NCBI RefSeq assembly: GCF_028368995.1
Contig: NZ_JAQNDL010000004.1
Coordinates: 1-64,000, forward strand
DNA from: Nannocystis bainbridge
Lineage (GTDB): Bacteria; Myxococcota_A; Polyangia; Nannocystales; Nannocystaceae
Length of the DNA stretch: 64,000 nt
Direction of reading: 5' to 3'
Part shown: positions 27,646 to 29,324 of the stretch, one piece after another
Layout: every line of letters begins with the position of its first letter
Position numbering within the stretch: the stretch's first letter is position 1
The notes under the pieces: generated by a model
The model's database searches: none
The model's input: only the letters and a program-made list of their open reading frames with translations
What the model was told of the DNA's origin: nothing
Translations under genes and position numbers: made by a program

Positions 27646-29324
27646 ATGGTCGAGATAGTATTGCTCTGTATCCTCGCGCTCTCTTTATGCGGCCTCGGGC
27701 TCGTCGTTCACCGGTTGCGAGCGCTCAAGGCCTCTCACCTTGAATTAAAGCGCCGATTTTCTCCGGTGTTCGACCTCGAACGAGAGCGCCAGCGCGTCAA
27801 GGCGGAGGTGGACGAGGAGCGCCGGTGCTTCGCCGCCGAGCGTGCACGCGGTGCAGCGGAGATAGAGAGCGCTCGCTCGCAGGTGGCGTCGGAGCGCGCG
27901 ACGTTTCTCGCGCAGCGCGTGGCAGCGGCCGCCGAACTGGAAGCGGAGCGGCGTCGACTCGAAGCCGAGCTGGACGGGGAATGTCGCCGCTCCGCCGCGG
28001 AGCTCGCCAAGGACCGTCAAGGCCTCGCTGCCGAGCGCCAGCGCGGTGCTGCGGAGTTGGAGGGCGCTCGTTTGCAGGTCGCCTCCGACGCCGCCGCCCT
28101 GGACACGACTCGCCGTCAGGTCGCAACAGAGGTCGCGGCCCAACGCGCAGCTGCGGTTGTCGAGGTCGAACAAATGCGCGTGGCCAGTGCCACGTTGCGG
28201 GCGGAGTTCGCAGCCCTCGACGAGGAGAGCAACCTGCAGTCTTTCGCCTTTTATAAGCCCCGATACGCGTTCACCAGCTCCGAGCATTATCAGCGCCAGC
28301 TCGAGGATACGCGAGATCGGCAGAAAGGCATGCTGAAGGACAAGGAGGCGGCGACCTGCGCCGAGGAGTGGCTGGTCAACGGCAGCAAGGCAGAAGGCCG
28401 CAAGCAGATAATCAGACCTTGAAGCTGATGCTGCGCGCGTTCAATGGCGAATGCGACGCGACCATCGCCAAGGTCCGCTACAACAACGTCGGTGTGATGG
28501 AGGCGAGGATCCGCAAGGCCTGGGAGGTCATCAACGGTTGCGCCGAGGTTCAGCGCTGCACGATCAGCCGCGGCTATCTCGATCTCAAGCTCGCGGAGCT
28601 GTCCCTCGTCCACGAGTACGAGGAGAAGGTCCAGCAGGAGAAAGACGAGCAGCGCCGGATCAAGGAGCAGATGCGAGAGGAAGAACAGGCCCTCCGCGAG
28701 CTGGAGAAGGTCAAGCAGGAGGCCGAGAAGGAAGAGAATCGCTTCGCAGAGGCGCTCAGGAAGGCCCAGGACGAGATCTTGCGGGCGTCAGGAGCGAAGC
28801 AGGAGAAGCTGCAGGCGCAGGTCGCCGAGTTGGAGCGGAAGCTGTCGGAGGCCCAAACGAACAAGGCACGCGCCGTCTCACGGGCGCAGATGACCCGCTC
28901 CGGGCATGTCTACATCATCTCGAACGTCGGGTCCTTCGGTGAGCACGTGTACAAGATCGGGATGACGCGCCGGCTCGACCCGATGGATCGGGTCAAGGAG
29001 CTCGGAGACGCCTCGGTCCCGTTCGAATTCGACGTCCATGCCATCATCTACACCGAGGACGCGCCGAAGCTGGAGAACGAGCTGCACAGGGCATTTCATC
29101 ATCGGCGGGTCAATCGCGTGAACGAGCGCAAAGAGTTCTTCAATGTCTCGATTCTGGAGATCGCCGAGCACGTGCGCCGGCATCATCCTGCGAGCATCGA
29201 GATCGTCCACGAGGCCGAGGCCATGGAGTACAGGAAGACGCTGTCGATGAGCCTGGAGGCCGCGAATTTGGCGCCCGACCCGAAGCAGGCGCTCGTCAGG
29301 CCGGCTGTGAGGGTAGGCGCCTGA
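27646..29324 (+). pseudogene. DUF4041 + T5orf172 (GIY-YIG-like) defence-island type protein, split by a frameshift near 28400.
   Basis: ORF 27574..28422 ends GRKQIIRP*. The other frame continues with the DUF4041 consensus QTLKLMLRAFNGECD. T5orf172 motif HVYIISNVGSFGEHVYKIGMTRR. Local GC is lower. Confidence 0.65.

Follow-up and report, generated by a model that had tools for sequence, protein, structure and literature searches.

Does a defence gene that is read in two frames in a single Nannocystis assembly still encode a defence protein, and does the break lie in the bacterium or in its assembled sequence? We considered this question for a locus of Nannocystis bainbridge BB15-2 at 27646-29324 on the plus strand of the window (the whole stretch of 64,000 nucleotides that was analysed), where one 559-aa protein is spread over two reading frames (Table 1). 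In GenBank the locus is given as two CDSs, WP_272091180.1 (258 aa, corresponding to ORF1), labelled 'hypothetical protein' and described in UniProt as 'SNIPE associated domain-containing protein', and WP_272091758.1 (28428-29324, 298 aa), labelled 'DUF4041 domain-containing protein', the ATG of which is found 5 nt past the ORF1 stop. Past the break, ORF1 ends with the out-of-frame residues ..KQ IIRP. A sequence-only reading of this DNA had already placed the gene at 27646-29324, which is exact according to the open reading frame listing. A scan for promoters and terminators around the gene gave no promoter-like site, and terminator-like sites at chance level.

Table 1. Features of the SNIPE locus of N. 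bainbridge BB15-2, in window coordinates.
Feature	Position	Strand	Details
ORF1	27646..28422	+	frame 1; ATG 27646, TGA 28420-28422; 258 aa; TM anchor, helical stalk and first half of the globular DUF4041 domain
Predicted single-pass TM helix	27646..27717	+	MVEIVLLCILALSLCGLGLVVHRL; residues 1-24; Kyte-Doolittle mean up to 2.64
Helical stalk with tandem duplication	27772..28170	+	copies 27772-27975 and 27967-28170
ORF2	open from 28257, TGA 29322-29324	+	frame 0; first start GTG 28368, then ATG 28428
Deletion site	28409..28410	+	C of the Ile255 codon ATC absent between the two bases
Rest of the SNIPE frame	28410..29324	+	frame 0; N256-A559 and stop
DUF4041 (PF13250)	28422..28589	+	Pfam full model 1-56/56, E 9e-23
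T5orf172/MUG113 (GIY-YIG-type nuclease)	~28902-29180	+	Pfam E 5e-17 / 2e-20
Glu477 codon GAG	29073..29075	+	aligns with E414 of E. coli PD-lambda-1 (via the PhiR26_1 protein)

When the two frames are joined, the repaired protein matches the PADLOC PD-Lambda-1 profile (PDLC03977) with an E value of 1e-164 (protein 114-539 on profile 49-475 of 496), and BLASTP against the 'PD-lambda-1' protein of phage PhiR26_1 (500 aa) gives 7e-115, with 49% identity over 352 aa. The joined protein aligns over its whole length with homologues that are single ORFs, 7,771 of them at E <= 0.001, and the best 120 of these all carry the three Pfam domains in one protein each. PF13250 bears the label 'SNIPE' in the precomputed Pfam labels; Pfam found no significant match on ORF1, and the NCBIfam scan of the repaired protein returned no family. 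The Tyr, Tyr, Arg, Glu and Asn residues of the nuclease domain are invariant across 65 homologues and are all kept here. A PDB sequence search with the C-terminal fragment recovered only chance coiled-coil matches (E ~0.5), and Foldseek, used with the whole model against the PDB, was dominated by elongated helices and gave nothing at E <= 0.001 (the GIY-YIG protein Slx1 appeared at E 1.1); because this fold search gave no significant match, the GIY-YIG assignment rests on the sequence profiles and on the published characterisation of the family. Judged by its sequence, the locus is the N. bainbridge orthologue of SNIPE (PD-lambda-1), a known and mechanistically characterised defence family and not a new system. 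The earlier description of a defence-type gene combining a TM helix, DUF4041 and T5orf172 is thus borne out, both for family and for architecture, by Pfam, PADLOC, homologue alignment and hydropathy.

The PD-lambda-1 system of E. coli is reportedly linked with the 2022 screen of Vassallo and colleagues. It has been characterised as SNIPE by Saxton et al. (Nature 2026; PMC13190303), as an inner-membrane nuclease that cleaves phage DNA as it is injected, that associates in E. coli with ManYZ and the phage tape-measure protein, and the DUF4041 domain of which promotes DNA binding. Defence is abolished by E414A, which also removes toxicity, and likewise by deletion of DUF4041, and in SNIPE deprived of its TM anchor the nuclease attacks host DNA and is highly toxic (PMC13190303). 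The N-terminal region is the least conserved and most length-variable part of the family, and the E. coli protein is the only one for which membrane localisation, cleavage of injected DNA and protection against siphoviruses have been shown (PMC13190303). Like the latter, the N. bainbridge protein combines a single N-terminal TM helix, a helical N-terminal region, DUF4041, a linker helix and a C-terminal GIY-YIG/T5orf172 domain; in the conserved core of 352 aa the two are 49% identical, and by alignment E477 stands in the place of the catalytic E414. Unlike it, the N. bainbridge protein has a stalk that is ~60 aa longer and contains an internal duplication of ~65 aa, it belongs to a myxobacterial host, and its reading frame is interrupted in the BB15-2 assembly, at the equivalent of E. 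coli PD-lambda-1 residue ~192 according to the alignment. One TM helix is present in 59% of homologues, and in the N. bainbridge protein the anchor is predicted from hydropathy. The single-polypeptide layout, with the nuclease tethered to the membrane, is found in a sister strain and in N. pusilla and is not found in this assembly.

The duplication of the stalk had also been pointed out in the sequence-only reading, and at ~65 aa it is larger than stated there: residues 43-110 and 108-175 share 29 of 68 positions, with an ungapped BLOSUM62 score of 121 where 300 shuffles gave a mean of 38 and a maximum of 60. A search for repeats at the DNA level did not recover it and a diagonal scan at the protein level did; the DNA copies are only 57% identical, so the duplication is old. 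It is common to N. pusilla and absent from Nannocystis sp. ILAH1, and the alignment shows stalk length to differ between homologues. The AlphaFold model of the ILAH1 protein (P0002, 85% identical; mean pLDDT 79.7) consists of a TM-plus-stalk helix that starts at residue 2, a compact domain at ~95-203, two long linker helices and an alpha/beta nuclease domain; the stalk region is modelled as one continuous helix, and the globular domain at ~95-203 is conserved and modelled at high pLDDT.

The break itself was located by base-by-base comparison with contig L082 of the sister strain, where the window reads CAG AT- AAT CAG against CAG ATC AAT CAG; at the same codon N. pusilla has CAG ATC AAC CAG. 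The junction is CAGATCAATCAG in L082, the intact form, and CAGATAATCAG in the deleted form, and homologues aligned across it read EGRKQ-I-NQTLKLMLRAFNGE without interruption. The alignment to intact DUF4041 homologues that had been suggested as a check thus locates the indel, with the homologues reading straight through, and the 1-bp indel that had been proposed is one C missing relative to both L082 and N. pusilla. It had been placed at around 28395-28405; the exact site is 28409/28410, 5-15 nt further right. It had also been described as lying inside the DUF4041 consensus, which does not hold by Pfam, the model of which begins 4 codons after the break, and does hold structurally: the break corresponds to Ile150 of the ILAH1 protein, inside helix 143-170 of the model (pLDDT 94-97), so that the globular DUF4041 domain is cut in two. 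The lesion leaves the membrane anchor and the nuclease on different sides of the break. The base that was lost is a single C flanked by T and A, no run of at least 4 identical bases is present in 28380-28440, no X XXY YYZ heptamer occurs within 28340-28425, and no repeat tract was seen at the deletion site in the stretches scanned around the junction. Phase variation was ruled out, as the site has no repeat tract.

The sister contig was recovered by an exact-protein look-up of the neighbouring 905-aa gene, which led to an 11.4-kb contig (L082) from Logan SRR28201026. Its identity to window 22995-34426 is 99.06%, and its SNIPE gene, of 559 aa, has no interruption. The proteins of the window and of the sister strain (P0123) agree at 556 of 559 positions (99.5%), and besides the deletion the genes differ by three synonymous changes and by three that alter the protein (C113R, V172A, T237I). 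That SRR28201026 is the same strain sequenced again was ruled out by 127 SNPs in 19.3 kb and by the vault-protein gene, where 11 of 11 are synonymous; because it is a different strain, its contig is no guide to the true BB15-2 sequence. The gene is also intact in N. pusilla (P0001, 81% identity) and in ILAH1 (P0002, 453 aa, lacking the duplicated stalk segment). The sister strain agrees with the window on either side of the gene. N. pusilla agrees with it upstream, and downstream has a 335-aa gene that the window lacks and a vault-protein segment in the opposite orientation. The 90%-identity cluster that holds the two fragments has the intact sister protein as its only other member. A scan of genome contigs gave 80 distant loci, with no Nannocystis among them. 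As a side observation, the annotated start of the N. pusilla protein (530 aa; CP185339.1, L081 9881-10000) is too far downstream: 40 codons before it, in the same frame, lies the coding sequence of a TM helix, MVEIVLLCILGLALLGLGGV, so the true protein is ~570 aa.

A comparison of the window with the sister strain over 19.3 kb in three contigs (L082, L083 and L084) bears on whether the deletion is real. It contains 127 substitutions (SNP rate 0.3-0.9%), four indels of 3 or 6 bp, all inside coding repeats, and three 1-bp indels, two of which are intergenic (25982 and 33105) and the third of which is the SNIPE deletion, the only frame-breaking coding indel of the 19.3 kb. Under a model of random errors, at least two of three 1-bp indels would fall in the ~14% of intergenic DNA with P ~0.05, and such a distribution is expected of real variation filtered by selection. 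Over the 17 kb syntenic with N. pusilla, all other genes are intact. The evidence leans modestly to a real mutation over a consensus error, and we regard a genuine and recent loss-of-function mutation as the rather probable cause of the break. Apart from the one base the gene is without decay, all family-invariant residues being kept, and this otherwise pristine state fits an intact gene with one consensus error equally well.

A consensus error, in which case the true BB15-2 genome would have ATC at codon 255 and a working 559-aa SNIPE, the two CDSs being an annotation artefact, is the strongest competitor, a serious possibility to which we give roughly one chance in three. Single-base deletions are the typical residual error of PacBio-only assemblies. 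For the novel Nannocystis strains, PacBio Sequel/Sequel II data were assembled with HGAP, which gave five contigs for BB15-2, and short-read polishing is unreported (PMC10435759). The retention of every invariant residue and the intact state of exactly codon 255 in a 99%-identical strain and in N. pusilla point the same way. Moreover, because untethered SNIPE is toxic in E. coli (PMC13190303), a real allele that still expresses the C-terminal fragment might be selected against. Against an error, the missing C lies outside any homopolymer, no further coding frameshift is present in the 19.3 kb compared with the sister strain or the 17 kb compared with N. pusilla, and the 1-bp indels are distributed as given above.

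Two readings accept the deletion and keep a role for the C-terminal fragment, and both are very improbable. According to the first, the anchored 258-aa and the re-initiated 298-aa fragments would bind each other non-covalently and together retain defence, or the free fragment would have found a new use. The ATG at 28428, so close behind the ORF1 stop, would permit translational coupling, and both fragments are annotated as CDSs in GenBank; the cut, however, interrupts not a linker but a helix, in a compact domain that is modelled with confidence, and the event postdates the ~1% divergence from the sister strain. The composition of the 90%-identity cluster and of the best 120 of 7,771 homologues, described above, and the toxicity of untethered SNIPE in E. 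coli (PMC13190303) speak against it as well. A functional split is thus unlikely because the cut lies in the helix of a compact domain and, among the sequences examined, no other genome showed such a split product. The second reading, to which we attach just as slight a probability, is a natural 'delta-TM' SNIPE, with a real deletion, a 298-aa nuclease fragment made by re-initiation and a host that tolerates it; if this were true, self-toxicity would need an intact DUF4041, or the fragments would rebuild a working split defence protein. Programmed recoding, by -1 ribosomal frameshift or transcriptional slippage to a full-length protein, had been offered in the sequence-only reading and is hardly credible: the frames overlap and the homologous protein resumes exactly at the junction, but the stretches scanned around it contain no slippery heptamer or homopolymer, the shift would need CAG-AUA-AUC, without re-pairing, and the frameshift is not conserved, since the listed homologues, the 99%-identical sister gene and N. 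pusilla are all uninterrupted, and on these grounds it was ruled out.

The favoured reading, a genuine loss of function, concerns a gene of distinct composition. Its GC content (0.62-0.66) and GC3 (0.76-0.87) are lower than those of its neighbours (0.69-0.74 and 0.89-0.96), which fits horizontal acquisition, and SNIPE homologues are found on temperate phages and plasmids. Among the matches listed, phage-borne DUF4041-T5orf172 proteins (E. coli PhiR26_1 'PD-lambda-1', Salmonella ES18 gp19) share the same core at 43-50% identity and plasmid-borne ones at 46-65%; these copies are on mobile elements, whereas the Nannocystis copy is chromosomal. No integrase or phage gene was found among the neighbours scanned (~19.9-27.1 and 29.6-38.5 kb). 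In N. pusilla the gene has the same place, downstream of the same fibrinogen-like lipoprotein gene, and the acquisition therefore predates the split of the two species. The neighbours encode secreted DUF4215/fibrinogen-like proteins, Ser/Thr kinases, a major-vault-protein homologue, endonuclease III and metabolic enzymes, and the PADLOC matches among them are limited to generic kinase-domain similarity to PD-T4-6 models and one EndoIII-like match. The architecture had been called typical of defence islands; the Pfam and PADLOC results for the neighbours rule out a recognisable one here. We infer that the lesion is real and the gene non-functional, and consider it most likely, at somewhat better than even chances, that the locus is an accessory defence gene, acquired horizontally, which has recently and genuinely lost its function.

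Several other elements of the window were recorded. Two eukaryotic-like Ser/Thr kinases, at 20994-23357 (-) and 33194-34357 (+), have many PADLOC PD-T4-6 matches (E down to 1e-66), which are probably generic similarity in a kinase-rich myxobacterium and no evidence of defence. Three tandem paralogues encoding secreted DUF4215/fibrinogen_C-like proteins occupy ~23400-27098 (+), the last with a lipobox-like LSAC, and between strains they show in-frame 6-bp indels in Asp/Thr-rich repeats (23713 and 26316). At 29612-32329 (-) is a 905-aa bacterial counterpart of the major vault protein of eukaryotes (Pfam MVP_shoulder E 1.5e-8, Vault_3 E 5e-8), the protein of which is identical to that of the sister strain despite 11 SNPs, all synonymous, and therefore appears to be under strong purifying selection. 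The vault-protein segment and an adjacent tRNA-like element are inverted relative to N. pusilla (window 29452-32481 against L081 13102-16190), and the 335-aa gene and two small genes of N. pusilla (L081 11825-12832 and 16577-17639) are absent from the window; the region directly 3' of SNIPE is thus rearranged.

Two tRNA-like elements, at window 29479-29543 (-) and 25813-25881 (-), score 50 and 32.7 bits, above the Rfam tRNA gathering threshold, and bracket the fibrinogen-like gene and SNIPE; ARAGORN called neither of them in the window. Copies are present at L081 7790-7862 (-) and 16098-16164 (+) and at L082 4883-4947 and 8553-8621. The two have conserved flanks in common (GGGCGGGCG... / ...CGGC..CCGTCG), the stronger copy (29479-29543) has an incomplete acceptor stem, and the 'anticodon' varies between orthologous copies; they look like a tRNA-derived repeat and not like working tRNAs. 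A 96-nt 'tRNA-His' called by ARAGORN at 19023-19118 (+) is below the gathering score of the Rfam tRNA model and is possibly a false positive. At 59436-60794 (-) there is a strong match to the ADYC domain (PF20032, E 9e-61), the stop-to-stop ORF of which overlaps by ~110 nt that of a same-strand 208-aa ORF without Pfam match.

As for how the protein may act in N. bainbridge, the mechanism can be carried over from E. coli SNIPE. An intact protein would be held in the inner membrane by its single N-terminal TM helix, with the stalk and DUF4041 projecting into the cytoplasm; DUF4041 would bind DNA and the phage tape-measure protein at the site of injection, the C-terminal GIY-YIG (T5orf172) nuclease would cut the incoming phage genome, and the membrane tether would keep the nuclease off the host chromosome. 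In BB15-2, with one C gone from the Ile255 codon, the frame would shift in the middle of a DUF4041 helix, so that the first product would be a membrane-anchored stub of 258 aa, joined at best by a re-initiated 298-aa fragment that has neither the anchor nor the N-terminal half of DUF4041. Should the deletion be real, we infer from the E. coli data that this fragment could not defend, and if expressed it might be mildly toxic.

WP_272091180.1 and WP_272091758.1 are best treated as the two parts of a single SNIPE gene, which is either a pseudogene or the victim of an assembly error, and defence censuses based on protein calls may miss or miscount the locus; beyond annotation the significance is small. 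If the deletion is real, the locus would add to the examples of defence genes that come and go rapidly between strains ~1% apart, and it would offer a natural allele in which the anchor is parted from the nuclease, a possible control for studies of SNIPE self-toxicity.
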